Source of the DNA: Candidatus Parvarchaeota archaeon
GTDB lineage: Archaea > Nanobdellota > Nanobdellia > WJKC01
Length of the DNA stretch: 64,000 nt
Direction: 5' to 3'
NCBI GenBank assembly: GCA_017608505.1
Contig: JAFCFT010000003.1
Location: 234 to 64,233 of the forward strand
The translations under genes and the position numbers were made by a program. The notes below the pieces were generated by a model that saw only the letters and a list, made by a program, of their open reading frames with translations, ran no database searches and had not been told where the DNA came from. Shown one piece after another: positions 27,670 through 48,924 of the stretch. The first letter of the stretch is position 1. The number at the start of each line of letters is the position of its first letter.

Positions 27670-27716
27670 TATTTATAAATGAGTAGCTATTTTCTTTTAT
27701 AAAGGGGGTTTTTTAA

Positions 27717-30382: not shown

Positions 30383-30422
30383 TATACAAATCCTTATAAT
30401 ATCTAAAAAATCTTAAAATAAT

Positions 30423-31043: not shown

Positions 31044-31091
31044 CGTAAGCCTTAGATAAACTTATAAGAGTTTAATGTTGTAATTTGAAAT

Positions 31092-32812: not shown

Positions 32813-32922
32813 TATTTTATATAAAATTATTCTACTTTAAATATTTTATTATAGTTAAATACCACAATCAAGAACCTGTTGAAACACAAGCCTTAAAAAG
32901 CATTAATTGCATTCACAATTCT

Positions 32923-33342
32923 ATGGTTTGGAAATACTCTTACGAAGAACTGCTTAAAAGAGCAAGAAGTCAGCTGCCAGCAATAGTTTTTGAGAAAAAA
33001 AGATTTGAAGTTCCGCGAGTAAAAGGAATGATACAAGGCAATAGAACAATTGTTAACAACTTCAAGGCAATTGCAGATTATATTGCCAGAAAGCCGGAAC
33101 ATCTTATGAAATTCTTATTAAGAGAGCTTGCAACCCAAGGCATACTTGAGGGGCAAAGAGCAACATTTACAGGCAAATTCTCAAGCGCAATATTAAACGA
33201 AAAAATCAATAAATATGTTAATGAATTTGTCAAGTGCGGCGAATGCGGCAAACCAGACACAAAGTTAATTAAAGAAGGAAGACTAACATTCATGAAGTGC
33301 ATGGCATGCGGAAGCAAAAGACCTGTTAGGAGCATAAAATGA
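32923..33342 (+). CDS. eif2b: Translation initiation factor aIF2 beta subunit
   Basis: YEELLKRA..., FEVPRV, NFKAIADYIARKPEHLMKFLLRELAT, Zn ribbon CGECGKPDT...CMACG. Confidence 0.9.
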   Translation: MVWKYSYEELLKRARSQLPAIVFEKKRFEVPRVKGMIQGNRTIVNNFKAIADYIARKPEHLMKFLLRELATQGILEGQRATFTGKFSSAILNEKINKYVNEFVKCGECGKPDTKLIKEGRLTFMKCMACGSKRPVRSIK

Positions 33343-33626
33343 TACTAAATGCAAAAGTTTCTGGAAAAGACTACTTAGTGTGCGTGTGTGACGAGAATTT
33401 GCTAGGCAAAACACTTGTAGAAGGAGATGTTGAAATTAAAATAAGCAGGCAATTTTACGGAGACAAAAAAGCAAGCGAAGAAGAAGTAATACAAGAGCTT
33501 AAAAAAGCAACAATAATAAATGCGTTTGGAGAAGAGTCAGTAAATGCCCTTAAAAAAGTTAAAGATATCTCAAGCACAATATACATCCAAGGAGTTCCTC
33601 ACGCGCAATGGGTAAAACTTTTTTAA
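33339..33626 (+). CDS. DUF424 family protein
   Basis: YLVCVCDENLLGK...EIKISRQFYGD pattern. Conserved position downstream of aIF2-beta. Confidence 0.7.
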   Translation: MILNAKVSGKDYLVCVCDENLLGKTLVEGDVEIKISRQFYGDKKASEEEVIQELKKATIINAFGEESVNALKKVKDISSTIYIQGVPHAQWVKLF

Positions 33627-33650
33627 ATGCATACTAACTAAAGTTTCTTA

Positions 33651-33977
33651 ATGGATGAAGAAGAACAAGAGTTTCGCGAAGGAGAAGAACTAATTAGAGT
33701 CAGGCTCCCAAAAGGCAGGGAAGTCATAGGCATTGTTGTCAAACTGCTTGGAGCTGCCAGAATGGATGTTAGATGCGTTGACGGAAAAACAAGAAGATGC
33801 AGAGTTCCAGGCAGATTTAGGCGAAGGCTGTGGATTAAAGAAGGCAATTTAGTTATTGTTGAACCGTGGGAAATTGAAGGGAATACAAAAGGGGACATAG
33901 TATACAAATACAATAAAACTCAAGAAGGGTGGCTTAGGAAAAAAGGATATCTTCAAAAGCTTGAAGAAGAGTTCTAA
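33651..33977 (+). CDS. eif1a: Translation initiation factor aIF1A
   Basis: S1-like region [57 protein letters not shown]. Confidence 0.9.
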
Positions 33978-34052
33978 AACCGACGATATTTCGATGCACT
34001 ATTTATTGTTTCTTAACAATTAATTTAAAAAGAGAAATACAATACTAGCGAT

Positions 34053-34865
34053 ATGAAGACGCTGACACTAGATTTAACAAGCAAGTGCAACCTGAACTGC
34101 GAGTACTGCTACGTAAATAGAAAATTAAAAGACATGTCTTTAAAAAAAATAATCAAATTACTAAAACAAGGTGTTGAAAACGGCTTTACGCACTTAATAG
34201 TATCAGGCGGCGAGCCTTTATTAAGACGCGATTTAATAAAGATTTTAAAAACTGCAAAAGAATTGAAATACGCAATTAGATTAAATACTAATGGAACCCT
34301 AATAACAGATGATTTTTGTAAAAAAGTTAAGAACTTAGTTGATGTAATCCAAGTAACAATAGATGGGTCCAAAGACACTCATAACAAATTAAGAAGCAGA
34401 AGCTATGACAAAGCGCTTTTGGGCCTTAAAAAAATCATAAAACATGGCATTAAAGTCTGCGTTGCAACAGTATTATCAAAAGATACTTATAAAGAAATAC
34501 CACACACTATAAAATTGTGCGAAACACTGGGCGTTGACTATTACAGATTAATAAGATTAATACCGCATAAAAAAGAATTAAAAAGCAAAGTAGTCACTAA
34601 AAAAATGAACAAATTGCTAATCAAATACTTAAAAGCTCAAAATAAAGTCAAACCCAAAATATTCTATGAAGGCATATGCACAAACAACTGTCCTGCTGGC
34701 AAAGAGTACTTAGGAGTAAATCCTGACGGCTCAATAGTTCCATGCATCTTTTATCAGAAAATTATTGGCAAGAATTTTAAACAAGCGCAAAAAAGCGATG
34801 CCTTAAAAGAAATATTAAACAATCCTTGCAAAGGTTGCAAAGCGCTTGCATATTACGGAGGTTAA
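34053..34865 (+). CDS. Radical SAM protein with SPASM/twitch-like C-terminus
   Basis: CNLNCEYCY (CxxxCxxC), SGGEPLL. C-terminal Cys-rich CTNNCPAGKEYLGVNPDGSIVPC...CKGC. Confidence 0.85.
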   Translation: MKTLTLDLTSKCNLNCEYCYVNRKLKDMSLKKIIKLLKQGVENGFTHLIVSGGEPLLRRDLIKILKTAKELKYAIRLNTNGTLITDDFCKKVKNLVDVIQVTIDGSKDTHNKLRSRSYDKALLGLKKIIKHGIKVCVATVLSKDTYKEIPHTIKLCETLGVDYYRLIRLIPHKKELKSKVVTKKMNKLLIKYLKAQNKVKPKIFYEGICTNNCPAGKEYLGVNPDGSIVPCIFYQKIIGKNFKQAQKSDALKEILNNPCKGCKALAYYGG

Positions 34866-34871
34866 GGCTTT

Positions 34872-35312
34872 ATGCAAAAATTAAAGACTAAAAAGAAATA
34901 TGACAATTTGTTTGAAGTGACAAAAGACGGCAAGCAGATATTGTGGCTTAATGAAGAACTGTCAAACAAAATAATAAATAATGACTTGTATAAAGCCTTG
35001 CTAACGCAGTTTCAGTATGACAATGGCATAGAAGTAAGACTTAATAACACATACAATGCGCATATCGAAGAAAAATCAAAGCCGCTAGAAATTGAATTAT
35101 TGCGCAACAACACTATTATTGAGGAGCTGCCGCTGAATGATATATATTCAAATTTTTATAAAAAAGCAACGCAAAACACAAGGTTTAGACCTTACAACGT
35201 AAGCTTTAACACATACAAAAACACCCCTTATCCAAAAAGCTCTAAAGCAAGCTACCAATCTTTGGGCGACATTTTCAAAAATTACAAAGGACTCTTTGGA
35301 TGTTGCAGTTAA
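34872..35312 (+). CDS. Hypothetical protein (146 aa) ending in GCCS
   Basis: ORF starts 6 nt after the radical SAM gene. C-terminus ...KGLFGCCS. Confidence 0.4.
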   Translation: MQKLKTKKKYDNLFEVTKDGKQILWLNEELSNKIINNDLYKALLTQFQYDNGIEVRLNNTYNAHIEEKSKPLEIELLRNNTIIEELPLNDIYSNFYKKATQNTRFRPYNVSFNTYKNTPYPKSSKASYQSLGDIFKNYKGLFGCCS

Positions 35313-35352
35313 ACCAAAAATAAGAAAATTAAAGACTTCCTAAAAATAATTC

Positions 35353-36063
35353 ATGGCTAGGAGAAGACCAAGAGAAGAATGGAAAGTAGAGCAAGGCGTA
35401 TTTGACAACACTACGCTGGACGCGCTTTACAAACTGTATCCAAAATACTTTGACAGGCTGCGATTTGTCATTAGCACTGGCAAAGAAGCAGATGTATACT
35501 TAGCCGAGCGCGGAGAAGAAAGGGTTGCAATAAAATTATATAGAATGGTGGCTCGTTCTTACAGAGATATTTACAAATACATTCAAGGAGACCCAAGATT
35601 TGAACATGTGCGCAACAGGATGCGCGATGTCATATTTGCGTGGGCAAAAAAAGAATACAAAAACTTAGAAAGAGCAATGCAGGCAGGCGTAAGGGTCCCA
35701 AAACCAATAGCTGTTGAAAAAAATGCTCTTGTAATGGAGTTCATAGGAGAAGATGACATGCCCGCAACAACAGCAAACAAACTTCCGCCAAAAGACCCTG
35801 CAACATGGCGCAGAAAAATCTATAAATGGGTCCAGGATCTATGGGATAAAGCCAATTTAGTGCATGGCGACTTAAATAAATTCAACATAATGAATTTTAA
35901 TGAGGAGCCAGTAATAATTGACATTAGTCAGGCTGTTTTAAAAGAGCATCCATTAAGCTTGGAATTGCTTAAAAGAGATGTTACAATAATAAGCAACTGG
36001 TTTAAAAAAATGGGTGCAGATGACGGAAGCCTAATAAAATGGCTTAAAGGCGTGATAAAATGA
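35353..36063 (+). CDS. rio1: RIO-type serine protein kinase (Rio1-like)
   Basis: ISTGKEADVYLA, AIKLYR, LVMEFIG, LVHGDLNKFNIM, IIDISQAV. Confidence 0.9.
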   Translation: MARRRPREEWKVEQGVFDNTTLDALYKLYPKYFDRLRFVISTGKEADVYLAERGEERVAIKLYRMVARSYRDIYKYIQGDPRFEHVRNRMRDVIFAWAKKEYKNLERAMQAGVRVPKPIAVEKNALVMEFIGEDDMPATTANKLPPKDPATWRRKIYKWVQDLWDKANLVHGDLNKFNIMNFNEEPVIIDISQAVLKEHPLSLELLKRDVTIISNWFKKMGADDGSLIKWLKGVIK

Positions 36064-36593
36064 GTTATGAATATAAAGTATTAATTCCGAAAGAAAGGGT
36101 TGCAGTCCTTATTGGCGAAAAAGGAAGCACAAAAAAAATGATAGAAAAGCGAACTGGCACAAAATTAATTGTCAAAGAAGAAGAAGTAACAATAATAAGC
36201 GAAGATTCGTACAAAGGCTGGGTCACGCAATCTATAATAAAAGCAATTGGCAGAGGATTTAAGCCTACAAAAGCTTTAATGCTTCTAAATGAAGGCTATG
36301 AACTAGAAATAATAGAAATCATGGATTATGGAAATACAAAAAAAGACAAAGTAAGACTAAAAGGAAGAGTGATTGGAGAAGAAGGCAGGTCAAGAAAATT
36401 TATTGAAAGAGAAACAAGGTGTTTTGTAAGCGTTTATGGCAAGACAGTGAGCATCATAGGGCCCCAAGATAAAATAGGCATTGCAAAAAGGGCTGTTGAA
36501 ATGCTTTTAAGCGGAGCCCAGCACCATACAGTCTATAAATACATCGCAAAAAAGATGAAAGAAATGAAATTAAGAGAAATGGGGCTAATTTAA
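36060..36593 (+). CDS. KH-domain RNA-binding protein (Dim2/Pno1-like)
   Basis: VLIGEKGSTKKMIE and VIGEEGRSRKFIE GxxG KH loops. Overlaps the RIO kinase stop, a conserved pairing. Confidence 0.8.
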   Translation: MSYEYKVLIPKERVAVLIGEKGSTKKMIEKRTGTKLIVKEEEVTIISEDSYKGWVTQSIIKAIGRGFKPTKALMLLNEGYELEIIEIMDYGNTKKDKVRLKGRVIGEEGRSRKFIERETRCFVSVYGKTVSIIGPQDKIGIAKRAVEMLLSGAQHHTVYKYIAKKMKEMKLREMGLI

Positions 36594-36704
36594 GAGTTAA
36601 TTTTTAAAAATCTCTTTATTTTAATATTATTTTTGCAAAATATTTATTGTAGAATATCTATTTTTTCCAAAAACTTTAAAAATACTTGTTAATTCCCTTA
36701 ATTT

Positions 36705-38381
36705 ATGGCTGAAAAGACTATTGCAGAAGAATTGGCAAAAGAAATGAAACAAACTAGCGTAGCTGAATTTTTCGAAAGAAACAGACACTTATTAGGATTT
36801 GACTCTAAAATAAAAGCAATGCTTACCTGCGTCAAAGAGATTGTTGACAACGGCATTGACGCTTGCGAAGAAATGATATATGAGTGCAAAAGAAAAAGAA
36901 AAGACTACGTCCTCCCAGAAATCCACGTAAAAATAAGCAAAGCTGGCGAAGACAGATACACAATAAGAGTCATAGATAACGGCACAGGAATAGTCAAAGA
37001 GCAAATACCACATGTTTTTACCCGCCTCCTTTACGGCTCAAAATTCCATAAAAAGAAGCAAGGAAGGGGCCAGCAAGGAATAGGCGTCTCTGCAGCAGTG
37101 CTTTACTCCCAACTTACAACAGGAAAAGCAACTCATGTTGTTTCAAAAACAGGACCTGACAAGCCAGCCTACTTTTATGATTTGCGAATCGACACTTCAA
37201 AAAACAGGCCTGAAATAGTAAATGAAGGCGTTATTGAAAGATTCAAATGGGACCATGGAACCCAAGTCGAGCTTGAAATCCTTGGAACTTACCTTGCAAA
37301 AGGAGAAAAAAGCATTTACGAATACTTAAGAAGAACAAGCATAGTAAACCCTCATGTAAGAATCACATTCATAGACCCTGAAGGAAAAAAAGTAATTTTC
37401 CCAAGAACAAGCGAAAGCGTTCCTAAAGAGGCAAAATCCATCAAACCTCACCCATACGGAATCGAAGTTGGAGATTTTATAAGAATGGCTGCAACAACAA
37501 AAGCAAAAACAGCCCTTACATTCCTTACCCATGATTTCTCAAGAGTTGGCCCAAAAGTCGCAAAAGAAATTCTTGAAAAAGTCGGCGTAAATCCAAGATA
37601 CAAACCATCTCAAATCACTAGAGAACAAGCTGTCGAAATTGTGCGCATCATGCAAAACACGAAATTCATGGCCCCTCCGCTTGACTGCTTAAGCCCAATT
37701 GGAGAAGACGCTCTTCGCAAAAGCTTAAGAACAGAGCTTGACGCAGAATTTGTCACAACAGTAAGCAGAAGCCCTAGCGTATATAAAGGAAACCCTTTCT
37801 TAATCGAAGCTGCTATTGCATATGGAGGCAGTCTTCCAACAGACAAACAAGTAAAAATAATTAGATTCGCAAATAAAATGCCCCTTCAATACGACGCAGG
37901 TGCTTGCGCAATTACAGAAACAATATCAAATATTGATTGGAGGCGCTACGGACTATCTCAAACAGGAGGAAGAGGCATTCCAGTAGGTCCTGCAATATTT
38001 CTTGTCCACATGGCTTCAACATGGATCCCATACACGTCAGAAGGAAAAAGCGCAATTGCGCATTATGACGCAATAATGAAAGAAATGAGGCTTGCGCTTC
38101 AAGACTGCGCGCGCGATTTAAGGCGCTACTTATCAAGAAAACACAAAGCATTAAGACAGCAACAAAGAACTTCAACATTTATCAAATACTCTGAAGAATC
38201 TATAAAAGCGCTTGCTGAATTAACTGGAGAAAAAGAAGAAGTTATTAAAGAGATGTTTAACAAGTTAATTGAAGCAAAAACAGGAGGCGCGCCTCAAATA
38301 AGCGAGCCTGCTGCGCCTAAAGACGAAGACTTTGAAGAAATTGACAAATTCATAAAAGAGGAGGGTGAAGAAAATGAGTAA
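36705..38381 (+). CDS. top6B: DNA topoisomerase VI subunit B
   Basis: Bergerat fold EIVDNGIDA, DNGTGI, GQQGIGVSA; transducer region. Confidence 0.95.
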   Translation: MAEKTIAEELAKEMKQTSVAEFFERNRHLLGFDSKIKAMLTCVKEIVDNGIDACEEMIYECKRKRKDYVLPEIHVKISKAGEDRYTIRVIDNGTGIVKEQIPHVFTRLLYGSKFHKKKQGRGQQGIGVSAAVLYSQLTTGKATHVVSKTGPDKPAYFYDLRIDTSKNRPEIVNEGVIERFKWDHGTQVELEILGTYLAKGEKSIYEYLRRTSIVNPHVRITFIDPEGKKVIFPRTSESVPKEAKSIKPHPYGIEVGDFIRMAATTKAKTALTFLTHDFSRVGPKVAKEILEKVGVNPRYKPSQITREQAVEIVRIMQNTKFMAPPLDCLSPIGEDALRKSLRTELDAEFVTTVSRSPSVYKGNPFLIEAAIAYGGSLPTDKQVKIIRFANKMPLQYDAGACAITETISNIDWRRYGLSQTGGRGIPVGPAIFLVHMASTWIPYTSEGKSAIAHYDAIMKEMRLALQDCARDLRRYLSRKHKALRQQQRTSTFIKYSEESIKALAELTGEKEEVIKEMFNKLIEAKTGGAPQISEPAAPKDEDFEEIDKFIKEEGEENE

Positions 38382-39471
38382 AAAAACTAGAACTGAAGAA
38401 TTAGAAAAGCTTGCGCAGTTTGGAAAACAAGTATTAGAACAAATCAAAAAAATGGAAAATCCTCACATTCAAATCCCGCTACGAAGCCTTTCAAACACAA
38501 TTTTTGACGAAGATAAACAAATATTAAAACTTGGCAATAAAAAGCAAGTTAGGACTTATTTTAACACAGCGCACACAAAAAAATTCATGCAGACCCTGCT
38601 TATAGCCTCAGCTTGCAAAGAGTTAATAAAAAGCGGCAAAACAACAAGCATAAGGGACCTATTCTACATGACAAAACATACAATAGGCACAAGCAAAGAA
38701 AACACTTTTGAAGACCAAGAAGAAAGCAATGCAATCATAGAAGACTTAGAAGTCACAATAGACGCATTAAGAGAAAATCTTCATTTATTTGCAAGCACAA
38801 GGGGCGCAATGGTAGGCAATGCCACAATTGTCGACTCAGGCGACACCATTAATCTTAGAAAAATGGGTTCTGGAGGATGGGGAATCCCTTCAATTGTTGA
38901 AGAAGAAGTCATCCAATTCAAGAATGTAGAAGCAGAATTTGTATTGGTCGTAGAAAAAGACGCTATGTGGCGCAGGCTTAATGAAGACAAGTTCTGGAAA
39001 AAACACAACTGCCTTTTAATGCACGGCCAAGGAATGGCCCCGCGCGGAGTGCGCAGGCTGCTCTGGCGCTTAAATCACGAATTAAAACTCCCTGTTTATG
39101 TGTTTGTAGATAATGACCCTTGGGGATTTTACATATATTCTGTCTACAAACAAGGAAGCATTAACTTAGCATATGAAAGCAAAAGAATGGCAGTAACAGA
39201 CGCCAAATTCATAGGCCTCTCAAGCTTTGACCAAGAAAAATTCGACATCCCAGACAATGCCACAATCAAGCTCACTAAAACAGACATAGCACGCTGCCGC
39301 CAAATTCTTGAATATCCTTGGTTTCAGAAAAAATCATGGCAAAAGGAAATCAAGCACATGATGAAAAAAGGCGTAAAACTTGAATTAGAGGCATTAAGCA
39401 AAAAAGGCCTTGAATTCACAGCAAACACATACCTTCCGCAAAAAATAGAAAATAAAGACTGGCTTGAATAA
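38365..39471 (+). CDS. top6A: DNA topoisomerase VI subunit A (Spo11 homolog)
   Basis: SIRDLFYM (catalytic Tyr region). Toprim motifs VVEKDAMW and VDNDPWG. Confidence 0.95.
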   Translation: MKKMSKKTRTEELEKLAQFGKQVLEQIKKMENPHIQIPLRSLSNTIFDEDKQILKLGNKKQVRTYFNTAHTKKFMQTLLIASACKELIKSGKTTSIRDLFYMTKHTIGTSKENTFEDQEESNAIIEDLEVTIDALRENLHLFASTRGAMVGNATIVDSGDTINLRKMGSGGWGIPSIVEEEVIQFKNVEAEFVLVVEKDAMWRRLNEDKFWKKHNCLLMHGQGMAPRGVRRLLWRLNHELKLPVYVFVDNDPWGFYIYSVYKQGSINLAYESKRMAVTDAKFIGLSSFDQEKFDIPDNATIKLTKTDIARCRQILEYPWFQKKSWQKEIKHMMKKGVKLELEALSKKGLEFTANTYLPQKIENKDWLE

Positions 39472-39646
39472 AATTTTACATATTTAATTTAAAATAGCGC
39501 GTGCTTTGGAAAAAATTAAAGACTAAAAGAATAACATTAAGGCATTAGTTACTGCAATAGAATATTTAGGCAGCATAATGTTTATATTGCATTCAGACGA
39601 AAACAAAAAACATTTAAGTGGAATATAAATTTCTATGTTATTAAGT

Positions 39647-39756
39647 GCCCAGGTAGCTCAGTAGGTAGAGCGTCCGACTGTTACCCAACGCTGAACAGAA
39701 CATTACGGCGTTGGATTGATATCGGATGGTCGCAGGTTCGAGTCCTGTCCTGGGCG
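39647..39756 (+). tRNA. tRNA-Asn(GUU) with a 37-nt canonical (37/38) intron
   Basis: Manual cloverleaf: acceptor GCCCAGG/CCTGGGC, D arm GCTC..GAGC, anticodon stem TCCGA/TCGGA, loop CT-GTT-A. Intron 39684-39720 has an internal CCAACGC/GCGTTGG helix. T arm GCAGG-TTCGAGT-CCTGT. No encoded CCA. Confidence 0.85.
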
Positions 39757-39788
39757 CATTACTTTCTTTTAAATAATAATTTCAACTC
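39751..39788. repeat. Direct repeat, left copy (att-like) at the tRNA-Asn 3' end
   Basis: TGGGCGCATTACTTTCTTTTAAATAATAATTTCAACTC, identical to 41647-41684. Covers the last 6 nt of the tRNA and an orphan copy of the 3' end of the 41655-41924 gene. Confidence 0.9.
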
Positions 39789-39932
39789 ACATAGTGGCGA
39801 TCATCAATGACTTAAAGATAATAAATGGGAAAAGTACAGATGTTATGAAAAGATATTAAAAACCTTGAAATTTGCAGAAAGTATTTATTCGTAAACGTAT
39901 TTAAATATTAATGTTAATAATTAGGTATCGCT

Positions 39933-40403
39933 ATGGTTCAGGCTGGAGTGCTTGGGGAGAGTAAAACAATTACGCCAGGCTCGTCTATTGATGAATTGCT
40001 TGACAAGTACTTAAGTAAATCTAAGTATGCTAAGAAGCTTAAGCCTGATGAGTTAGTTCGTAAGAAGAATAAATTATACAATTTACTCTTGGAGGTTGGC
40101 AAGACAAAACTAAAGGATGTTGAGGAAGTATTAAGTCTTTACCAGAGCATTCCTTTATGGCAGAATTCAAAGGACTTGCCAGATGATGCTAACTTGCTTG
40201 ACGCTGTGTTAAGGGAGGAGGAATGGGTTTACAAGCCAGACGCATTAGAATACTTGTTAGAGAAGTACAAAAAGGAAGGTGGAAAAGACTTCAGGATTAT
40301 TTTACATTACCATAACGGAGTCATTACTAGTGGAAGGCCTGATTATAAGACTAAATATTCTACTCTTAAGGCAGTGGCTAAGTACCTAGGAGATACATTA
40401 TAG
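39933..40403 (+). CDS. Hypothetical protein (156 aa) inside the tRNA-Asn island
   Basis: ORF with AAG-rich Lys codon usage unlike the flanking genes. Confidence 0.4.
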   Translation: MVQAGVLGESKTITPGSSIDELLDKYLSKSKYAKKLKPDELVRKKNKLYNLLLEVGKTKLKDVEEVLSLYQSIPLWQNSKDLPDDANLLDAVLREEEWVYKPDALEYLLEKYKKEGGKDFRIILHYHNGVITSGRPDYKTKYSTLKAVAKYLGDTL

Positions 40404-41540
40404 TCTGTAGCGCTTGTACACGTTCTTGCATGGACTGCCGTAACAATAGAAGTACTCACTACTAGTTAGATTAAAGATTAATGAGGCGACAGTTATTACG
40501 CCACTGTCGTGTCCGCAAATGCCTGTCCCTGCATGTCTAAAGTGTGACCTAAGTAGCCCTATTACTCTTCCAATCAAGTCATTGTTTAAAGGATAATTAA
40601 TCAGTGTTTTTGCAATTACATCGACAGTGACGTACCTGTGCATTGAGTCGGTGTAATCCCTTTCAGTCTTAGCATTAGGAATTTTCTTAATTGAATGATT
40701 AGTTGATATAATGTAGTTGTCAGACTCTCTACATTTGCACGCCACTCCATCCTTAGAAGATAGTTTTTCAACAACAATTGCTTTGTCCTTGTTAAAAAGG
40801 AGTAAGTTATAGCCGCTAATGCATGGCGTATTCTCTGCAATCTCCTTTGCTTTATTCAAACTTGATGCCTCGTTAAGTATTTTCTGGACAACCAGTGATG
40901 GTGGCAGGCCAGCATGACTTCTAAGAAAAGACTCCTTTTCATCTTCATCCTTTATTGTGCCATAATCTTTTAAGATTTTTTTGTAGTCTCTTTCAAGACC
41001 ATTTTTAGGTCTTAGCGTGTTGAGAAATACTCCTATGCTCTTCTCATTAACACCTGCTATAGAGCCAATCAGCGGTGTTAGAGTAACTGATAAGGATTTG
41101 TGAAAGCCTGGAGGGTGATTACTCCTTAAGATGGTGTATTGTAGCGCTCTTGACTTAAGGTCTACATTGCCTCCAGCAACCTTCTTGCATAGGACAAATG
41201 AAGTGCATCCTTCTTGATTGCGAACAGATTCAATAAATAATCCATCAAGGATGCCGAGACGCATAAGTGGCTCTTTCTCATCTATGTATGTTCCTTCATA
41301 TTCTTTTTTATCTTTACTATCTAAGTAGTTAAATAGTTCGGTAGCATAGCCTTGAAGCTCGTCCCAAAACGTGTTTCTTTCAAAGAAGTTTATACTTTTA
41401 ATCATTAAATCAGAAACGGCTCCAATTTCGTCTTCTTGTTCTATTAATGGTTTGCCACCAAGTCTATACGTTTTTAACGTATGCAATATGTTCTTATGGT
41501 ATGCTCTTGCTAGATTCCTGCCTAAATCATAAAAAGACAT
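40398..41540 (-). CDS. Peptidase C45 / acyl-CoA:6-APA acyltransferase-like Ntn hydrolase candidate
   Basis: 380 aa. NQEGCTSFVL resembles the autoproteolytic GCT(S/T)F nucleophile site of the C45/choloylglycine-type Ntn hydrolases. Overall size fits. Confidence 0.5.
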   Translation of the reverse strand: MSFYDLGRNLARAYHKNILHTLKTYRLGGKPLIEQEDEIGAVSDLMIKSINFFERNTFWDELQGYATELFNYLDSKDKKEYEGTYIDEKEPLMRLGILDGLFIESVRNQEGCTSFVLCKKVAGGNVDLKSRALQYTILRSNHPPGFHKSLSVTLTPLIGSIAGVNEKSIGVFLNTLRPKNGLERDYKKILKDYGTIKDEDEKESFLRSHAGLPPSLVVQKILNEASSLNKAKEIAENTPCISGYNLLLFNKDKAIVVEKLSSKDGVACKCRESDNYIISTNHSIKKIPNAKTERDYTDSMHRYVTVDVIAKTLINYPLNNDLIGRVIGLLRSHFRHAGTGICGHDSGVITVASLIFNLTSSEYFYCYGSPCKNVYKRYRL

Positions 41541-41646
41541 TAATTTAAAAATAAGTTAGAATATTTATTTAATTTTCTAATGTTTGTTTTTATGATTTTT
41601 CTTTTTTGAAGCCTTAAAAATATTAAAATAGTTGAGGTCGTTATTT

Positions 41647-41684
41647 TGGGCGCATTACTTTCTTTTAAATAATAATTTCAACTC
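41647..41684. repeat. Direct repeat, right copy (att-like)
   Basis: Identical 38 nt to 39751-39788. Contains the stop and last 9 codons of the 89-aa membrane protein gene. Confidence 0.9.
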
Positions 41685-41924
41685 GCACAGCAACATTTTG
41701 TAATTAAGAGCAAAGTGTATTGCAATTAAAAAGCTCATTAAAAAGCTAGGAAGTGTGTGGACAGATTGAAGTGTGCCTTTGTCAAAGCCAAAAAAGGTCC
41801 AGCCAGTTTCACGAGCTATTCGACTGCTAGGAGCAAAATGCAATCCAAGGCCACTAAAGAACACAATGATAAAGAAAAGCAACAGCAATAATGAAATTGC
41901 GCCTCTTAATTTGACAATATTCAT
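41655..41924 (-). CDS. Small membrane protein (DUF4405-like, 2-3 TM, conserved His)
   Basis: ISLLLLLFFIIVFFSGLGLHF...SVHTLPSFLMSFLIAIHFALN. Confidence 0.5.
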   Translation of the reverse strand: MNIVKLRGAISLLLLLFFIIVFFSGLGLHFAPSSRIARETGWTFFGFDKGTLQSVHTLPSFLMSFLIAIHFALNYKMLLCELKLLFKRK

Positions 41925-41956
41925 TTATCAAGAATAAAATGTTTCTTTTTTAAAAA

Positions 41957-42256
41957 CTATTCGTTTAAAGCTTCGTTGATTAAAAACCCAGGCCACTCCC
42001 AGCAATTGAATTTTTTGCACATAAAAGGCTTAATATCATGAATTGTGCATTTATTGTCCTTGCTTAAAAATGGGCATTTTGGAAGTTTTTTCCCATCAGA
42101 GTCAAACCAAGCAAGGAAGTGTCTGCCATTCCATTTAAGAAATTTAATGATATCAAAACGCCCCATTTGGGCGTATTTTTTGACTTCTTCTCTGCTTATA
42201 GTGATAAGACCGCAATAGTATTTGCAGCATCTTCCGCATTGAATGCAAATTTCCAT
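41957..42256 (-). CDS. YkgJ-family Zn/Fe-chelating domain protein (UPF0153)
   Basis: MEICIQCGRCCKYYCG...CPFLSKDNKCTIHDIKPFMCKKF. True ATG at 42256; the track ORF extension to 42493 is hydrophobic junk. Confidence 0.7.
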   Translation of the reverse strand: MEICIQCGRCCKYYCGLITISREEVKKYAQMGRFDIIKFLKWNGRHFLAWFDSDGKKLPKCPFLSKDNKCTIHDIKPFMCKKFNCWEWPGFLINEALNE

Positions 42257-42290
42257 ACAAATATTTATAGGATAAATGATAATAATTTTA

Positions 42291-42521
42291 ATGGATTTAA
42301 AAACAGTGCTCGACAGTATTGATGAAGCAGTTCTTTTGACTGACAAGAAAGGGCAGGTGATAGACGCTAATAAAAATGTCAAAAACATATTTGGATTAAG
42401 TAAAAAAGAAATAATTGGAAAAAAATACACAGTGCTTGGAATTAAAAAAAGAGGCGGGATACAAAAGTTTAAAGAGAAGATTGCAAAAATCAAAGTGAAG
42501 AAGATAGTGACGGCTTTTTAA
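42291..42521 (+). CDS. PAS-domain protein (short)
   Basis: MDLKTVLDSIDEAVLLTDKKGQVIDANKNVKNIFGLSKKEIIGKK is a PAS N-terminal pattern. Confidence 0.5.
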   Translation: MDLKTVLDSIDEAVLLTDKKGQVIDANKNVKNIFGLSKKEIIGKKYTVLGIKKRGGIQKFKEKIAKIKVKKIVTAF

Positions 42522-43009
42522 TGATAATTAAAGATGTCACAGAAGAAGAACATTTAAAAAATATAGCAAAATTAAATCAGGAGATTATTAAAAAAGCGTC
42601 TTTTAGGATATACATTGTAAATGAAAATGGCATTATCGAGTTTGTCAATAATGCAATAATTAAGATGTCTGGAACGAGTAGAGAGCAGTTTATTGGAATG
42701 AATGTTTTTGAACTTCCTACATATAAAAAGAAGCCGAAAGGAAAAATAGATGAAGAAATTAAAAAACACATTAGAATGCTGGGAAGCGCTTTGTATAGCA
42801 TTAGTCCGGAGATACATGAAGAAGATTGGAATTGTGTTTTAAAATTTGCAAAAGAAAACAGGATTAAAAACTGCCAATTTTGGCTTAGAGGCTGGCCTGA
42901 TGTTCCAAATCCAAAAGTGAAAGCTGAAACAATAATGAAAGCAATGAACTTGGAAGAAAAATACGGAGTAAAAATTTATTTTGACATAAATCCAGAATAT
43001 ATAGTGTGA
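42521..43009 (+). CDS. PAS-like domain protein
   Basis: ASFRIYIVNENGIIEFVNNAIIKMSGTSREQFIGMNVFEL. TAATG junction with the upstream PAS ORF. Confidence 0.45.
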   Translation: MIIKDVTEEEHLKNIAKLNQEIIKKASFRIYIVNENGIIEFVNNAIIKMSGTSREQFIGMNVFELPTYKKKPKGKIDEEIKKHIRMLGSALYSISPEIHEEDWNCVLKFAKENRIKNCQFWLRGWPDVPNPKVKAETIMKAMNLEEKYGVKIYFDINPEYIV

Positions 43010-44365
43010 CTATTCAAGCATTCTTTTTTCGTATTTTTTTAAATAATTGATAGATGTGTTTACGTCTGCAAAGAGTTTTTCCACTTCTTCTACATGCTCT
43101 TTTTTAACAGCGCTGTTGCCTGCAACAATGCTTGCAGGAGCAAGGAGATGCACAGCATGCCTTAAGCTGGTCTTGTCGCCAATGCTTGTTAAATAATCCA
43201 AAGCTTCTGGAGAGAGTTCAATGCCTTCAACTTTGCTTCTTATTTTTAATATTTCCTTAATTTCGCTAGCAGAGTAATCTGAAGTATTGATTATTAATAG
43301 GCGGTCTATTAAGTCAAGGGGCATGCCGTGAGGCGCTTTGATGCTTGTGCCTCTGATTTCGCTCATTCCTCTGTTTGTCGCGAAAATTATAATAGGTGCA
43401 AGTTCGCCTTCCATAGCCCTGTTAAGAAAAGCAAAAGATTCTATGTCAAGCATGCTGCATTCGTCTATAAAAAGAACACCAGGAATTATTTCTGCTTTTC
43501 CGCTTTCAACCCAAGATTTAACTGTGCTGTTTATTTCAGACCTTAGTTCGCTGTCAACTTCTTTGCTTGACCCGCCAAATAAAACGCTGAAAAAGTCGCT
43601 CCTTGCAGCGCGCGCATTTAATACATCCATTTGATGAAGAGTTAAAGTGTAAACAAATTCTTTGTTTTTTAAAACAGTTCCAGAAGGCACAGGCAATAAT
43701 TCTTCAGCGCTTAAGTCTAGTTTTTTATCTTTAGCATATTTGCTGGATTTTCCTAATTTTACTACTTTGTTGCCGTCTGCATCGATTTGAATAACATCGC
43801 CTTCGCTTACGCCTTGCTGAAGAAATTGAAGTGCAAAAGCCTGGTCCATGCTTAAGCTCTTGCATTCTTCAGTAGTGCAAAGCTTAACAGTCGCGCTGAC
43901 TGGAATCTGCTGATAAGGATTGTAAGGATGCGCTTCCTTTTCTATGTCAAGCTTTTCAACAACGCCCTCATAGATTTTTCTCATCTCTTTAATTCTTACG
44001 CCAATAGCCTTTCTTAGAGCTTGGGTAAGAAACTCGGTTTTTTTAATCTCAGCGCTGTAAATTTCACTTGCTGTTATCGGAACAAATGGCACGTCTCTGC
44101 CTAATTCTTTTGCCATGCCAAGGGCAACTGCAGTTTTGCCAGTTCCTGGAGGGCCCGCAATAAGCACTGCTCTTCCTGCAAATTTGCCGCTTTTTACAAG
44201 CTCTACAACTATGCCCGCTGCCTCTCTTGCTTTTTCTTGCCCGACTAAGCCGTCTGCTTTCTTTTTGGCTTTAAGACCTTTAAGACCTAATCCTGTGATG
44301 TGAGAATGGGCGCTTACGCGCTCCCAGTCCTTTATAGACTCGGGCAGCTCCTTAATTTCTGCCAT
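43010..44365 (-). CDS. RuvB-like / TIP49 AAA+ ATPase
   Basis: ERVSAHSHITGLGL, GQEKAREAAG, Walker [12 protein letters not shown], inserted OB-like domain II, Walker B VLFIDECSML. Confidence 0.9.
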   Translation of the reverse strand: MAEIKELPESIKDWERVSAHSHITGLGLKGLKAKKKADGLVGQEKAREAAGIVVELVKSGKFAGRAVLIAGPPGTGKTAVALGMAKELGRDVPFVPITASEIYSAEIKKTEFLTQALRKAIGVRIKEMRKIYEGVVEKLDIEKEAHPYNPYQQIPVSATVKLCTTEECKSLSMDQAFALQFLQQGVSEGDVIQIDADGNKVVKLGKSSKYAKDKKLDLSAEELLPVPSGTVLKNKEFVYTLTLHQMDVLNARAARSDFFSVLFGGSSKEVDSELRSEINSTVKSWVESGKAEIIPGVLFIDECSMLDIESFAFLNRAMEGELAPIIIFATNRGMSEIRGTSIKAPHGMPLDLIDRLLIINTSDYSASEIKEILKIRSKVEGIELSPEALDYLTSIGDKTSLRHAVHLLAPASIVAGNSAVKKEHVEEVEKLFADVNTSINYLKKYEKRMLE

Positions 44366-44420
44366 AGATTTTTAGATGTAAAAAATAACTTTTAAAATTT
44401 ACTGTGCCTTAAGAATAATA

Positions 44421-45113
44421 GTGGATATTGTTTTAGAAGTTAAAAATTTGAATGTGTCTTTTAATAATGAAGCAGTTATTAAGGACTTAAGCTTTGATGT
44501 CAAAAAAAGCGAAGTGCTGGTGATTTTAGGTCCAAACGGCGCAGGAAAAACAACCCTTTTAAGAACACTTTTAGGCATTGTTCCGCATACAGGAGAAATC
44601 ATCTGGCGCACTAAAAACATAAGTTACCTTCCGCCCCAGGAATTTGTGCAAAGAAAAAATATGCCCCCTTTAAGCGTGCTGGAATTTTTTAAAATAAAAA
44701 ATGATTCTTTAAAAAGAATTAAAGAAATAATAAATATGGTCGGGCTTGACAAAAGCATATTAAATAAAGAGTTTTATAATTTATCAACAGGCCAATTTCA
44801 AAGGATGCTTATAGCATGGGCGCTGATTAACAAGCCTGAAGTGTTGCTTCTTGACGAGCCTGCAAGCGGAATAGATATTGGTGGAGAAGAAACAATATAT
44901 TCTTTGTTGCATAAATTTTGGGAAAAATGGGGAATTACAATACTTATGGTAACGCACGATTTAAATATTGTGTGGGAGCATGCCACAAATGTTTTGTGTT
45001 TAAATAAAAGAGGCTTGTGCTACGGGCCTCCTGAAAAAGTGCTTGCGCCAAAAAGATTAAAAGAACTTTATGGCGTTGGAATAAAATTTTACAAACACAA
45101 GGTGAAAAAATGA
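44421..45113 (+). CDS. Metal (Zn/Mn-type) ABC transporter ATP-binding protein
   Basis: GPNGAGKTTLL, LSTGQFQRMLIAWAL, LLLDEPASGID. Overlaps the ABC-3 permease gene. Confidence 0.85.
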   Translation: MDIVLEVKNLNVSFNNEAVIKDLSFDVKKSEVLVILGPNGAGKTTLLRTLLGIVPHTGEIIWRTKNISYLPPQEFVQRKNMPPLSVLEFFKIKNDSLKRIKEIINMVGLDKSILNKEFYNLSTGQFQRMLIAWALINKPEVLLLDEPASGIDIGGEETIYSLLHKFWEKWGITILMVTHDLNIVWEHATNVLCLNKRGLCYGPPEKVLAPKRLKELYGVGIKFYKHKVKK

Positions 45114-45871
45114 TTGAATTAATGTATGCTTTAATAATAGGAGGATTTACAGGATGGCTTGCAGGATACATGGGCTCATTAATGCTTACTAAAAGAATGG
45201 CCCTTGCAGGAGGGGCGCTGGGCCACTTGACTCTTCCAGGGATTACATTGGCATTGATTTACGGATTTGATGTCACTTTAGGCGCCTTAGCATTCTTAAT
45301 ACTTGGAATAACATTAATATGGTTTTTTGAAAAGAAAACAAAGCAACCAATGGAGGCCTTAACTGCAGTTGTTTTTGCTTCCTCAGTTGCAGTGGCATTT
45401 CTTTTTCTTAAACAAGAGCAGGTTGTTCCAGCCCTTATTGGCGACGTATCAAAACTAACAATAGATGTTGTGATTGCAACTGCATTTGCGTCAATTGCAA
45501 TTTTTTTAATTGTTAAAAGATACCTTCTTAAGATGACATTAATAAACATTTCAAGAGACCTTGCAATAAGCGAAGGCATAAATGTAGACAAATACAATCT
45601 CTTGTATCTTGCTTGCGTTGCAGTAACAGTCGCGATAGGCGTAAGAATTGTAGGAGGGCTTATGACAGCAGCGATAGTTGCAATACCTGCAGTAGCAAGC
45701 AGAATAGTAAGTAGAACATTAAAAAGCTATGTTTACACATCAGCATTTTTTGGAGCTCTTGCCTGCGTTGCAGGCATACTGATGAACTATGCAACAGGCC
45801 TTCCTGCAGGCCCCATGATAATAATTTCAAACGCTGTGATCTTTTTTATTGCAGCATTAAAACCATCCTAA
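45110..45871 (+). CDS. ABC-3 family metal transporter permease
   Basis: Polytopic protein of 253 aa, translationally coupled to the ATPase. Resembles ZnuB/MntB-type permeases. Confidence 0.8.
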   Translation: MIELMYALIIGGFTGWLAGYMGSLMLTKRMALAGGALGHLTLPGITLALIYGFDVTLGALAFLILGITLIWFFEKKTKQPMEALTAVVFASSVAVAFLFLKQEQVVPALIGDVSKLTIDVVIATAFASIAIFLIVKRYLLKMTLINISRDLAISEGINVDKYNLLYLACVAVTVAIGVRIVGGLMTAAIVAIPAVASRIVSRTLKSYVYTSAFFGALACVAGILMNYATGLPAGPMIIISNAVIFFIAALKPS

Positions 45872-47182
45872 GAGCATGCCAAGGCCAAGGAAAGTTATTA
45901 TAAGCCCTGCAGTTAAATGAAGATGCTTGACATTCTTGTCTTTCCATTTTTTAACATCTTTGGCTTTTGAAAGGCCAAAATAAACTGCAAAAGTTATTCC
46001 CACCATAGGGCTTATGAATAACATATTGTATATTATTAAGTAAGGAATTGAACTTAAAAGCTCAAAAGCGCTTAAAAGTCCGCTAGTAATGACATAAGGC
46101 CCTATAGTGCATGGAAGCAAGAACACAGTTATGAATAATCCAATTATAAATGCTCCTTTTGGGGATGTAACTTTGTTTATTAATTTTTTTGCAAAAGGCC
46201 TTAAACGCATAGGCATTTCAGTTGCAAAGCCTCCAGGTTTGTAATAAAAATAATCCTTTATTTGGAAAAAGCCAAGAATTAAAGCAACAAAGCCAAGCGC
46301 TTTATAAAGAAAAAGTCTAATGCTTGTCAATGCCTGCACTAATTGAAAAAATCTAATTAAAACTAAGCCATAAAAAAAATACATGATAAAAACAGCAAGT
46401 GAAAAATTAAATCCTGCTAAAAGAACATTTCTTTTCTTTTTGGGGTTGTATGTCACGATTGAAATAAGCACAAGAGCCAGCACTGCCAAAGCGCAAGGAT
46501 TTACTGCATCAACAAGAGCCAATGTAATTATCTTAAACAAAGTCAAGTCGCTTGCTTGGTAGTTTCCTGAACCTGCAATTTGAACTTTAACTGCGTTTTC
46601 GAATGAAATCGAACCTCCAGAAATAGGGAGGTCTTCAGGTTCTGCAAGCGAATATTCATCTCCAATTTCAGATAAAAGCTCGGGAGGAACTATTTTGTAA
46701 AATGATTCGTTGCCGTTCCATTCAAGCGTCCATAAATCATTTTCTTTAAACAAAACGCCGTTTTTAAACCAGATTTTAGGCTTTCCAGGAAGCGAACTTA
46801 TGTTAAGTTCTAAAAGACTTTGCGACCCATTTAAAAGCAGAAATTCGTTGTCAGAATTAGCATCCATATATGTTTCAATGCTTTGTATTATTGGCAGGTC
46901 GCCTATAAGATAACTTGTGTTCGAAAAGATTACAAGAGGTATTCCGCATCGCGCAAGGCCGAGCAGGTCGCAGTATTTGCTAAGCAAAGGCGCATTAATG
47001 TTTTCTTGATAAATTTCGTATTCAATAACAGTAAGATTTGGGTATTTATTAAACAAGTTGAAAACAATAGGGTCTGTTTTAGCGCAGTGAGGGCATCCAA
47101 TGCCTGTAAAATAGACAATAGACTGCGCGCATGCTGCGTTAAATATGCTAAATGCTAAAAACAAAAATAATGATTTTTTCAA
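45857..47182 (-). CDS. Secreted thioredoxin-like domain fused to a CcdA/DsbD-type membrane thiol-disulfide transporter
   Basis: Signal peptide MKKSLFLFLAFSIFNAACA, CPHC motif, then the TM domain with AVNPCALAVL and LLPCTIGPY. Confidence 0.8.
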   Translation of the reverse strand: MKKSLFLFLAFSIFNAACAQSIVYFTGIGCPHCAKTDPIVFNLFNKYPNLTVIEYEIYQENINAPLLSKYCDLLGLARCGIPLVIFSNTSYLIGDLPIIQSIETYMDANSDNEFLLLNGSQSLLELNISSLPGKPKIWFKNGVLFKENDLWTLEWNGNESFYKIVPPELLSEIGDEYSLAEPEDLPISGGSISFENAVKVQIAGSGNYQASDLTLFKIITLALVDAVNPCALAVLALVLISIVTYNPKKKRNVLLAGFNFSLAVFIMYFFYGLVLIRFFQLVQALTSIRLFLYKALGFVALILGFFQIKDYFYYKPGGFATEMPMRLRPFAKKLINKVTSPKGAFIIGLFITVFLLPCTIGPYVITSGLLSAFELLSSIPYLIIYNMLFISPMVGITFAVYFGLSKAKDVKKWKDKNVKHLHLTAGLIITFLGLGMLLGWF

Positions 47183-47188
47183 GGCAAC

Positions 47189-47467
47189 TCACTCCTTTAA
47201 AATTTTAATTGCTTTGCCATTAATTATTGCGTCAGCAATTTTTTTTCTTGCATTGCTTAAAATCCTGTTAAATGTTGGTTGGGAAATTTTCATTTTTTCT
47301 GCAGCTTCGTCCTGCTTTAAGCCAAGCAGATCGCACAATCTTAATGCTTCAACTTCATCCATTCTTAATTCAACCTCTTCAAGGGCTCTTATAGGTATGC
47401 CTGCAGGTTTGTAATATGTCACGCTTGGATTAAATAAAATTCTTCTGCATCTTAAAGGTCTAGGCAT
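47189..47467 (-). CDS. DUF134 (UPF0251) DNA-binding protein
   Basis: MPRPLRCRRI...YYKPAGIP...DEVEALRLCDL...ISQPTFNRIL. Confidence 0.8.
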   Translation of the reverse strand: MPRPLRCRRILFNPSVTYYKPAGIPIRALEEVELRMDEVEALRLCDLLGLKQDEAAEKMKISQPTFNRILSNARKKIADAIINGKAIKILKE

Positions 47468-47513
47468 GGGATAAAAAAAGAAATAAAAATTTAAAAAGGT
47501 TTTGAATAAAAAT

Positions 47514-47723
47514 TCATTTTTCTTCTTTTTCGCTTTTAAGTTCTTTTAATCTTTTTTCTATTTCTTGTTTGTATGCTTCAAGCATGCGTATTTCCTCTTC
47601 TTTGCTCAACATCAAATATGGGCGGAATCTAAACCATCTTCTAAATCCCATGCCGCACGGACCTCTGCCCCACCCAGTTCCAGGACCTAGACCAAGAGGG
47701 CCTGTACCATCTCCGAAAGGCAT
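47514..47723 (-). CDS. DUF5320 family protein
   Basis: MPFGDGTGPLGLGPGTGWGRGPCG... plus a C-terminal coiled coil. Commonly paired with DUF134. Confidence 0.7.
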   Translation of the reverse strand: MPFGDGTGPLGLGPGTGWGRGPCGMGFRRWFRFRPYLMLSKEEEIRMLEAYKQEIEKRLKELKSEKEEK

Positions 47724-47828
47724 ATTATCACCTCCTTTTATGAATTATTATTCATAATTCCTTTATAAATGTTTTGAATTATAATTCATAAGTAACTTTA
47801 AAAATAAACAAGATTTCCTTCAAAAAGC

Positions 47829-48293
47829 ATGATGATCTTTTGCGGGCATATAGGAGTTGCGCTAATAATAGCAGGGCTCCTAAAATTAGACCCTATAATA
47901 ACATTGATTGGGGCAGTGATTCCAGACCTTGATGCTTTAATGTTTTTAACAGGAAAACACTGGTATAAATTTCACAGAAAACTAACGCACTCGCTGTTAT
48001 TTCTGCTTGCGCCATTACCATTTGCAGGGGTTCCAAACATAATGATCCCTTTGTTTTTTGGAATATTGTCTCACTTGATAGTTGATTTCATATGGTATCC
48101 TGGATTAAGAATATTTTATCCGTTCAGCAACAAAAAATATTATATATTTGACTCTATATACTCAAAAGGGTTTAAAGAAGACACCCCAATAATAGCAATA
48201 AGAAATTGGTTTCACAGGCCAAAATGGTTTTTTGGAGAACTTACAATTTTAATTATCGGCGCAATAGTGTTTAGTTTGTTTTTCCAAAAGTAA
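47829..48293 (+). CDS. Membrane-bound metal-dependent hydrolase (DUF457/YdjM-like)
   Basis: GHIGVALII...PDLDAL...HRKLTHSLLF with TM helices. Confidence 0.6.
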   Translation: MMIFCGHIGVALIIAGLLKLDPIITLIGAVIPDLDALMFLTGKHWYKFHRKLTHSLLFLLAPLPFAGVPNIMIPLFFGILSHLIVDFIWYPGLRIFYPFSNKKYYIFDSIYSKGFKEDTPIIAIRNWFHRPKWFFGELTILIIGAIVFSLFFQK

Positions 48294-48924
48294 TTTTTAA
48301 CACTTCTAAGAAATTTTTCCAAATGCTTGTGAATTCGCTTCTGCGCATAACTCCAATTACATTTTGATATGTCCATTTGACACCAGTTTTTGCAACAGAT
48401 ATTGCCTTATCGCGTGCAAAAAAGAATAATAGGCCTGCAAACAAGCAAGCAAAAACTCCTGGAAGTGGCGCTTTGATGCGGTCCCATATAGTGACTTTAG
48501 GTTCTAAATGATTAAGTAAGTTCTTTCCATAAAGAACTTTTCCTTGGTTTTTTATGTCCCTCCATATAATACCTTTTGGAATCATTAATTTTGAAAGCAC
48601 GCCATGTTTGCAAAAGTTAAATTTCTTTTTGCGCCACTCATTTAAGCTAAATAAAAAAATGTTTCTTTTGTATCCAACGTTGTCCAAAAATTGAGAGAAT
48701 TTTTTTTCAATAAAATTGTGAGAAGACTCTACGAGTGAATCTTCTACTTCTTCCATTAATCTTATGATTTCTTTTGTCTTGTTTTTAACAACAACTATTA
48801 AATCAATGTCGCTGTCAGGCTGCCAGTCTCCCCTGCTTACGCTTCCAAAAACAATCATTGAAACTAAGTCGTTGCGCAGTAATGAAATTATTTCATCCTT
48901 CAAAGCTTTTAATTTCTCGTTCAT
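48271..48924 (-). CDS. Nucleotidyltransferase-domain protein
   Basis: VFGSVSRGDWQPDSDIDLIVVV (GS-x-RG...DxD). ATG at 48924 is preferred over the track start at 49065. Confidence 0.7.
   Translation of the reverse strand: MNEKLKALKDEIISLLRNDLVSMIVFGSVSRGDWQPDSDIDLIVVVKNKTKEIIRLMEEVEDSLVESSHNFIEKKFSQFLDNVGYKRNIFLFSLNEWRKKKFNFCKHGVLSKLMIPKGIIWRDIKNQGKVLYGKNLLNHLEPKVTIWDRIKAPLPGVFACLFAGLLFFFARDKAISVAKTGVKWTYQNVIGVMRRSEFTSIWKNFLEVLKITFGKTN

Follow-up and report, generated by a model that had tools for sequence, protein, structure and literature searches.

A two-gene genomic islet bounded by a long direct repeat at a tRNA-Asn gene of a Candidatus Parvarchaeota archaeon

How does a pair of genes come to lie between two copies of a repeat that is itself made of the adjoining ends of two other genes? 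The question is raised by a locus in a 64,000-nt stretch of DNA (the window) from a Candidatus Parvarchaeota archaeon, a metagenome assembly (GCA_017608505.1) in which the window is positions 234–64,233 of contig JAFCFT010000003.1. At the 3′ end of a tRNA-Asn gene, a perfect 38-nt direct repeat encloses an island of two intact genes, one coding for a C45-family Ntn (N-terminal nucleophile) hydrolase and the other for a 156-aa protein, p156; the far copy of the repeat runs into the gene of a DUF4405 membrane protein. The reading that we favor, with a probability of roughly 0.45 when its mechanism is included, is that the island is a two-gene, non-autonomous foreign cassette without a recombinase that inserted at the junction of the tRNA-Asn and DUF4405 3′ ends, with a repeat derived from the target. 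That an insertion took place, by whatever mechanism, is very probable. The island is a small genomic islet of a broadly known kind, notable for lacking a recombinase and for carrying an undescribed gene pair.

The repeat and the gene ends it contains

The perfect 38-mer, TGGGCGCATTACTTTCTTTTAAATAATAATTTCAACTC, occurs twice on the + strand, at 39751–39788 and 41647–41684, with 0 mismatches; an earlier note on this DNA had placed both copies exactly. Allowing up to 3 mismatches brought out no further copy in the 64-kb window, and the 38-mer matched nowhere in 100 dinucleotide shuffles. A repeat search lengthened the pair to 44 nt at 42/44 identity, the left copy occupying 39751–39794 and the right copy 41647–41690 (both +). 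The 6 nt past the perfect part are ACATAG on the left (39789–39794) and GCACAG on the right (41685–41690), and on the minus strand these hexamers encode Leu-Cys in both copies (CTA TGT and CTG TGC, respectively). Each copy as a whole encodes LCELKLLFKRK and a stop, and the only two differences between them are synonymous third-position transitions (frame checked by hand). Because a random hexamer would encode Leu-Cys in that frame in 0.2–0.5% of cases, we take the homologous segment to be 44 nt. No significant similarity was found beyond it in the 30–100 nt flanking either side (p 0.07–0.98), and the interior between the perfect copies measures 1,858 bp.

The repeat is made up of 6 nt of tRNA end, a 2-nt spacer, and the stop and 11 codons of the DUF4405 gene, so that 32–38 of its 38–44 nt are host-specific, non-tRNA sequence and the tRNA share is only 6 nt. 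The tRNA-Asn gene (39647–39756, +, anticodon GTT) gave a full-length match to the Rfam model RF00005 at 62.7 bits, with a 38-nt insertion in the anticodon loop. Its intron, with coordinates read from the sequence, is 37 nt (39684–39720) and sits at the canonical 37/38 position; it is because of this intron that ARAGORN misses the gene. The tRNA gene encodes no CCA, and its last 6 nt (39751–39756) lie inside the left copy, which continues into an orphan DUF4405 3′ end. In the right copy lie the last 11 codons and the functional TAA stop of the 89-aa DUF4405 membrane protein gene (41655–41924, −; Pfam PF14358, 6.1e-14) together with a displaced 6-nt tRNA end. Rfam, Pfam and the sequence agree that the left copy overlaps tRNA-Asn and the right copy the DUF4405 stop and C terminus, as had been described; the extent of the latter overlap had been put at 9 codons and is 11, the repeat being 44 nt. 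We infer that the DUF4405 gene was the original neighbor of the tRNA, and in the reconstructed empty site its stop would lie 2 nt from the end of the tRNA.

The gene pair and its relatives

The island interior consists of two intact convergent genes and ~250 nt of upstream DNA, the latter divided between two AT-rich non-coding arms. The left arm (39789–39932, +, 144 nt) lies upstream of the p156 gene, and a TTTAAATA box within it, ~25–30 nt ahead of the p156 ATG, is a putative promoter of that gene. The right arm (41541–41646, −, 106 nt) lies upstream of the C45 gene and contains neither an open reading frame (ORF) nor an integrase remnant.

The larger gene (40398–41540, −) codes for a 380-aa autoproteolytic proenzyme of the C45 family, an AAT-like Ntn-hydrolase, as judged from Pfam, NCBIfam and a profile comparison with the PDB. 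The suggestion that it was a C45/Ntn-hydrolase, to be checked against the profile PF03417, was borne out: the protein matched Pfam AAT PF03417 at 2e-9 (37.9 bits, cutoff 23.2) and NCBIfam NF040521 at 9.6e-26 (90.9 bits, cutoff 85) over residues 2–361. A profile built from the protein and its distant relatives matched the Penicillium acyltransferase structure PDB 2x1d at 3.5e-43, with G111-C112-T113 aligned to the DGCT autoprocessing and nucleophile site of AAT. In a 33-sequence alignment D127, N281 and R302 are invariant and C112 nearly so. Cys112, preceded by Gly111, is the predicted nucleophile, and the conserved Gly-Cys site predicts a self-activating Ntn amidohydrolase or acyltransferase. 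The AlphaFold2 model of the protein was unusable (predicted local distance difference test, pLDDT, 38).

The other gene (39933–40403, +) encodes p156, a mostly helical protein free of recognizable domains, which had no match in Pfam, PHROG, PADLOC or NCBIfam, and none in the PDB by profile; a PDB sequence search with a narrow profile of the C45 protein likewise gave no matches. The AlphaFold2 model of p156, a weak one (pLDDT 58), had no match in a fold comparison. The gene had been taken for an ORFan, and this view did not survive, since homologues exist in two other lineages, always tail-to-tail with a C45 gene.

These lineages came to light with the larger protein. A word-indexed search of 5.8 billion proteins with it matched only itself, and an exhaustive HMMER search of 1.84 billion representatives gave two relatives below 1e-30, P0002 (39% identity) and P0003 (30%). 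P0002 is encoded on contigs L082 and L085 and P0003 on L083 and L084, and in both lineages the C45 gene is followed by a convergent gene homologous to that of p156 (blastp 2.5e-14 for the partner ORF of L082 and 4e-6 for that of L083). The tail-to-tail overlap of the two genes is exactly 6 nt in all three lineages, reading TTATAG or TTATAA (TTATAR), at 40398–40403 in the window (TTATAG), at 1474–1479 in L082 and at 9162–9167 in L083. Both proteins of the pair end in Leu-stop in these three lineages, which share only 30–39% protein identity.

The settings of the pair in L082, L083 and the window are mutually unrelated. In L082 the cassette lies ~4 kb from a Piwi/Argonaute gene (6633–8744) amid ORFans, a setting that may be a defense island, and in L083 it is surrounded by ORFans and a giant protein with a lectin domain. 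The L082 partner (1474–2337) is longer, 287 aa, with an extra N-terminal region that bears a GIY-YIG-like motif; it gave weak matches to T5orf172 (E 0.0015, just below threshold) and to the GIY-YIG part of an NCBIfam exonuclease model (0.004). No tRNA was seen near the cassettes of L082 and L083, and no flanking repeats were seen either on these contigs, whose ends lie a short way from the cassette.

The pair behaves as an accessory module. The Gly-Cys site, the obligatory partner, the conserved 3′ overlap, the patchy spread, the Argonaute neighbor and the nuclease-like partner suggest that the cargo is a self-contained two-component module, such as an enzyme with its regulator or a toxin with its antidote, and not a piece of ordinary metabolism. 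The island proteins gave no PADLOC match to a known defense or toxin family. That the pair is a new selfish addiction or defense module, spreading among DPANN-type archaea by long target duplication without a recombinase of its own, is a more specific proposal that we consider rather unlikely. The tail-to-tail pair is nevertheless a small and testable candidate for a new toxin-like or defense-like module.

Occupancy of the site and possible routes of insertion

Two further contigs of this species, from a second sample (JGI 3300033150), diverge from the window by 0.11–0.14%. One of them (L086) corresponds to window positions 37291–39924 at 99.89% identity and spans the left junction, from the tRNA into 136 nt of the island; the other (L001) corresponds to 40317–44661 at 99.86% and spans the right junction, from the island into DUF4405 and on to TIP49. 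Both available same-species assemblies thus carry the island. These contigs bear on the explanation that there was no real or recent insertion, either because an assembler threaded a separate molecule through the shared 38-mer or because an old local duplication surrounds long-resident genes. The window is indeed a metagenome assembly and is known from contigs alone; however, the two independent contigs cross the left and right junctions, both unbroken at the repeat, which counts against an assembly artefact, and a repeat that is perfect at 38/38 speaks against an old duplication. We regard this explanation, in either form, as very improbable.

The two contigs end within the p156 gene, at window positions 39924 and 40317, with ~390 nt unassembled between them, and this gap could reflect low coverage or strain variation within p156. 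The sequenced part of the island has 0 single-nucleotide polymorphisms (SNPs) between the window and the second population, the 1.33 kb covered by L001 included, and 5 of the 6 differences of L001 are clustered within 18 nt (41745–41762) inside DUF4405, a cluster that has the look of a short tract acquired by recombination from a diverged allele.

Codon usage sets the island apart from its surroundings. Its Lys codons are 30 AAG to 26 AAA, compared with 383 to 1502 in the other ORFs of the window (54% AAG against 20%; odds ratio 4.5, p 7e-8), so the AAG-rich Lys codons remarked on in the earlier note are real. GAG likewise makes up 47% of Glu codons in the island and 21% elsewhere (odds ratio 3.3, p 7e-4), and codon usage is host-like in the genes adjoining the island. 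When all synonymous codons were tested, p156 was the most deviant of the 60 ORFs of the window (z 7.3), with several host genes close to it (7.1, 6.0 and 5.9). A foreign origin of the island is supported by these data, although not strongly for both genes.

The small insert, its lack of a recombinase and the composition of its repeat bring to mind insertion accompanied by long target duplication, a process by which selfish gene cassettes reportedly insert (Nobusato et al. 2000). Furuta et al. 2010 (PMC2853133) described the repeats of such insertions as longer than 30 bp, made of unique local sequence and often spanning a start or stop codon, and the inserts as cargo only, namely bacterial restriction-modification cassettes with 46-bp repeats in the worked examples. 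On the operational criteria of Furuta et al. 2010 other than the comparison with an empty site, the present island resembles this class: it contains cargo genes only, it is shorter than 20 kb, and its direct repeats exceed 30 bp and are unique within the window. In this process a foreign cassette, consisting of the C45 gene, the p156 gene and their own upstream regions, would have landed exactly between two gene 3′ ends. Staggered breaks, or capture of the incoming DNA during replication repair, would have served without any element-encoded recombinase, and the target junction would have been duplicated on both sides as 38 nt of perfect or 44 nt of near-perfect repeat. Duplication of the junction on both sides would leave both host genes intact. 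We favor a target-derived duplication because 32–38 bases of the repeat are host-specific and not tRNA sequence: the repeat consists of the lineage-specific ends of two host genes, which the attachment site (attP) of a tRNA-targeting element has no reason to carry.

This origin of the repeat is favored over site-specific integration, a possible though doubtful alternative. In that case the island would be a minimal or decayed element whose attP had a core of 38–44 bp, and a tyrosine integrase would have acted from elsewhere (the chromosome, a virus or a plasmid) or would since have been deleted; the element might still be excisable in trans. Several features would fit. The region downstream of tRNA-Asn is a hot spot, in which a YdjM-like gene is displaced by 8 kb relative to the related genome L002, and both edge differences of the repeat are synonymous, as expected if attP copies a related host allele. 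The lineage-specific tRNA intron could trace an earlier recombination between an element and the tRNA, since the model of Sugahara et al. 2012, as it is cited in the review PMC8371274, has such introns arrive through attachment-site recombination of elements with tRNA genes. However, just 6 nt of the repeat are tRNA, and the rest is a spacer plus the end of the coding sequence for a small membrane protein of low conservation, which an element would carry only if it had co-evolved with this locus. The island contains no integrase, no Int(N) or Int(C) fragment and no debris, Pfam identified no recombinase among the 25 window ORFs searched against it (the others were assessed by eye only), and the exact 38-nt core was absent from the viral and metagenome contig collections scanned. 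Moreover, the homologous cassettes elsewhere are not beside tRNAs, and a 1.9-kb circle without a replication or transfer function has no obvious route of spread.

The earlier note had proposed that the island arose by recombination across a 38-bp core and is a decayed element or one mobilized in trans, having noticed that it carries no integrase. The absence of an integrase is confirmed, since the island, shadow frames of its genes aside, has only two ORFs of at least 50 aa and neither of their products has a recombinase domain in Pfam, PHROG, PADLOC or NCBIfam. Recombination across the core is one option, and a target-derived duplication fits at least as well, with only 6 of the 38 nt belonging to the tRNA. 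A decayed element is a poor description of two intact genes with ~250 nt of upstream DNA and no pseudogene debris.

A number of points weigh against the target-derived insertion that we prefer. Landing exactly at a tRNA 3′ end is a hallmark of tyrosine-integrase elements, and the length of the repeat is near the archaeal range, attachment sites in archaea being typically 40–50 bp, favoring tRNA 3′ ends and sometimes extending beyond the tRNA (PMC8371274). Insertion with long target duplication is itself a process without an established mechanism, and screening left no archaeal case in the survey of PMC2853133. Both differences between the copies fall at the same edge of the 44-nt repeat, an arrangement that simple mutation after the insertion would produce with p ~0.02–0.04, and this clustering fits an element-borne copy of a donor allele somewhat better. 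Composition had been expected to deviate in the interior, and it does so in codon usage, most strongly in p156; GC content (0.33–0.40) is normal for the window, and the C45 gene deviates moderately (12th of 60 ORFs, z 3.4), features that would also suit genes long resident in this genome. No excised circle, attP or second insertion of the cassette was found in the contig and protein collections. No empty site was found by exact-protein look-ups with DUF4405, p156, C45, PAS and TIP49 and homologue searches with DUF4405 and TopoVI-A, in which the only same-species matches were the occupied contigs L001 and L086; in so sparsely sampled a lineage this absence is weak evidence. Insertion into a tight convergent junction of tRNA and DUF4405, as first proposed, therefore stands as the most economical reading of the anatomy of the locus and not as a demonstrated event.

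The clustered differences also bear on a Campbell-type origin, in which the cassette, already at this junction in a related strain, would have looped out by recombination between its repeats as a circle with one 44-nt copy of that strain's junction and, once transferred, would have come into this lineage through one homologous crossover in the 38 identical bases. This would account for the host-type sequence of the repeat and for an identity that ends in two synonymous, allele-like differences at one edge, and the cluster of 5 SNPs in 18 nt of DUF4405 between populations suggests that diverged alleles do recombine here. Yet 38 bp is a short stretch for homologous recombination to act on, the first insertion would still have to be explained by another mechanism, and no circle or donor strain has come to light; we consider such an origin improbable.

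The remaining classes of element were rejected or found no support. For a split integrase of the SSV type, only + frame 1 is open across the core, and at each junction it runs into stops within a few codons to either side; no ORF of at least 50 aa crosses the island junctions except DUF4405. A transposon or casposon would call for terminal inverted repeats, of which there are none (local alignment p 0.95, 0.62 and 0.11 for 40, 80 and 150 nt), and neither a transposase nor Cas1 is present. The duplication of 38–44 nt is also too long for casposons, whose target-site duplications measure 14–15 bp. It likewise exceeds the target duplication of IS1630, 19–26 bp (PMC2853133). The 38-mer shows no attC-like dyad by eye, as an integron cassette would. 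A viral origin found no PHROG match and no relatives in IMG/VR or among GenBank phages; on plasmids, the only matches were C45 genes with 25% identity on Halocatena megaplasmids.

The cells of DPANN archaea have tiny genomes, in which insertions must spare genes, and to our knowledge their mobile DNA is almost unknown. The islet presents a foreign gene pair that fits between two abutting gene ends, leaves both intact, and does so apparently without a recombinase of its own. Should the repeat come from the target, the route of long target duplication would extend from bacteria to archaea and to cargo beyond restriction-modification genes, and the islet would be the first archaeal example of this unexplained route. 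If instead the repeat is an attachment-site core, it would point to an integrase acting in trans in a lineage for which none has been described.

The tRNA flank and comparison with known systems

The window also codes for Rio kinase, a KH protein, topoisomerase VI subunits B and A, TIP49 and other archaeal genes. The closest species-level genome, L002, is a metagenome-assembled genome labeled 'Candidatus Parvarchaeota' with 87% TopoVI-A identity; more distant relatives are labeled Nanoarchaeia, Woesearchaeota or Pacearchaeota. Window positions 27304–39471 are collinear with L002 246–11098, and the order of TopoVI-A followed by tRNA-Asn is kept in L002, L003 and L013, where the tRNA is intron-free, unlike its orthologue in the window. 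Synteny with L002 breaks downstream of this tRNA: the YdjM-like gene is directly next in L002 and lies at 47829–48293 in the window, so that the interval between the two is 39757–47828 (~8 kb) in the window and 11317–11385 in L002. The extra ~8 kb holds the island, DUF4405, a CxxCxxCC protein, two PAS proteins, TIP49, a metal ABC transporter (ZnuC/ZnuB-like), a 441-aa membrane protein and a DUF134 protein. A larger element bounded by the core was considered and rejected, as no further degenerate copy of the tRNA end or of the core was found in 41700–48400. The flank of tRNA-Asn thus appears to be a hot spot of rearrangement or insertion, and because a different gene set follows the tRNA in L002, that genome is not close enough to stand in for an empty site.

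A second cassette of 1.8 kb (31092–32736), recognized from Pfam and from synteny with L002, also consists of two convergent genes with overlapping 3′ ends. One encodes a 237-aa ORFan (GC 0.27, codon z 7.1) with a PD-(D/E)XK-like motif seen by eye, and the other an N6/N4 DNA methyltransferase (Pfam 6.4e-32), so that the cassette is probably a type II restriction-modification system. It is flanked by at most a 13-nt imperfect direct repeat (31042–31054 and 32883–32895), and L002 lacks it at the syntenic site, where 54 nt separate the two flanking genes; small cassettes therefore come and go in this lineage. Elsewhere in the window, a 1,669-aa ORF (9503–14512) resembles by eye a secretion- or pilus-type ATPase with two intein-like insertions and is followed by pilus- or archaellum-like membrane genes, and two small ORFs (5063–5359 and 56497–56766) show by eye a likeness to RelE/ParE-type toxins.

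The 380-aa protein shares with the family of C45 peptidases and acyl-CoA:6-APA (6-aminopenicillanic acid) acyltransferases (PF03417, NF040521, 2x1d) the Gly-Cys site, the conserved Asp, Asn and Arg, and scores above the curated thresholds. It differs from the family in being very divergent, with two relatives at E <1e-30 among 1.84 billion representatives, and in its constant tail-to-tail pairing with a small partner gene; no record of such a pairing was found for the family, although no literature search was aimed at it.

Among mobile units, bacterial integrative mobilizable elements and cis-mobilizable elements, and the tycheposon remnants at tRNA genes of Prochlorococcus, are non-autonomous or satellite elements that borrow recombinases. 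From general knowledge, the island resembles them as a non-autonomous unit with attachment-site-like repeats beside a tRNA that is possibly mobilized in trans, and it differs in that no helper element or recombinase was identified for it.

With tRNA-targeting elements, that is, those using tyrosine integrases, including the Islander type and the archaeal pNOB8 and SSV types (PMC8371274), the island has in common its site at a tRNA 3′ end, an intact tRNA with a fragment of it displaced to the other end, a repeat length near that of archaeal attachment sites, foreign codon usage and a variable region downstream of the tRNA. However, it has no integrase gene or fragment, and its two genes in 1.86 kb fall far short of the size of any autonomous element. 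The repeat here takes in only 6 nt of tRNA, whereas in these elements it usually reaches from the anticodon or T loop as far as the 3′ end.

The cassettes inserted by long target duplication carry a restriction-modification system, whereas the cargo here is a C45 proenzyme and its partner. The host here is an archaeon, one edge of the repeat touches a tRNA, and the comparison with an empty site that defines the class stands only for those cassettes. What the island shares with them is a small cargo-only insert with no transposase, integrase or inverted repeats, enclosed by repeats of more than 30 bp that are made of unique local sequence and, like many of theirs, span a stop codon, leaving the genes on either side intact.

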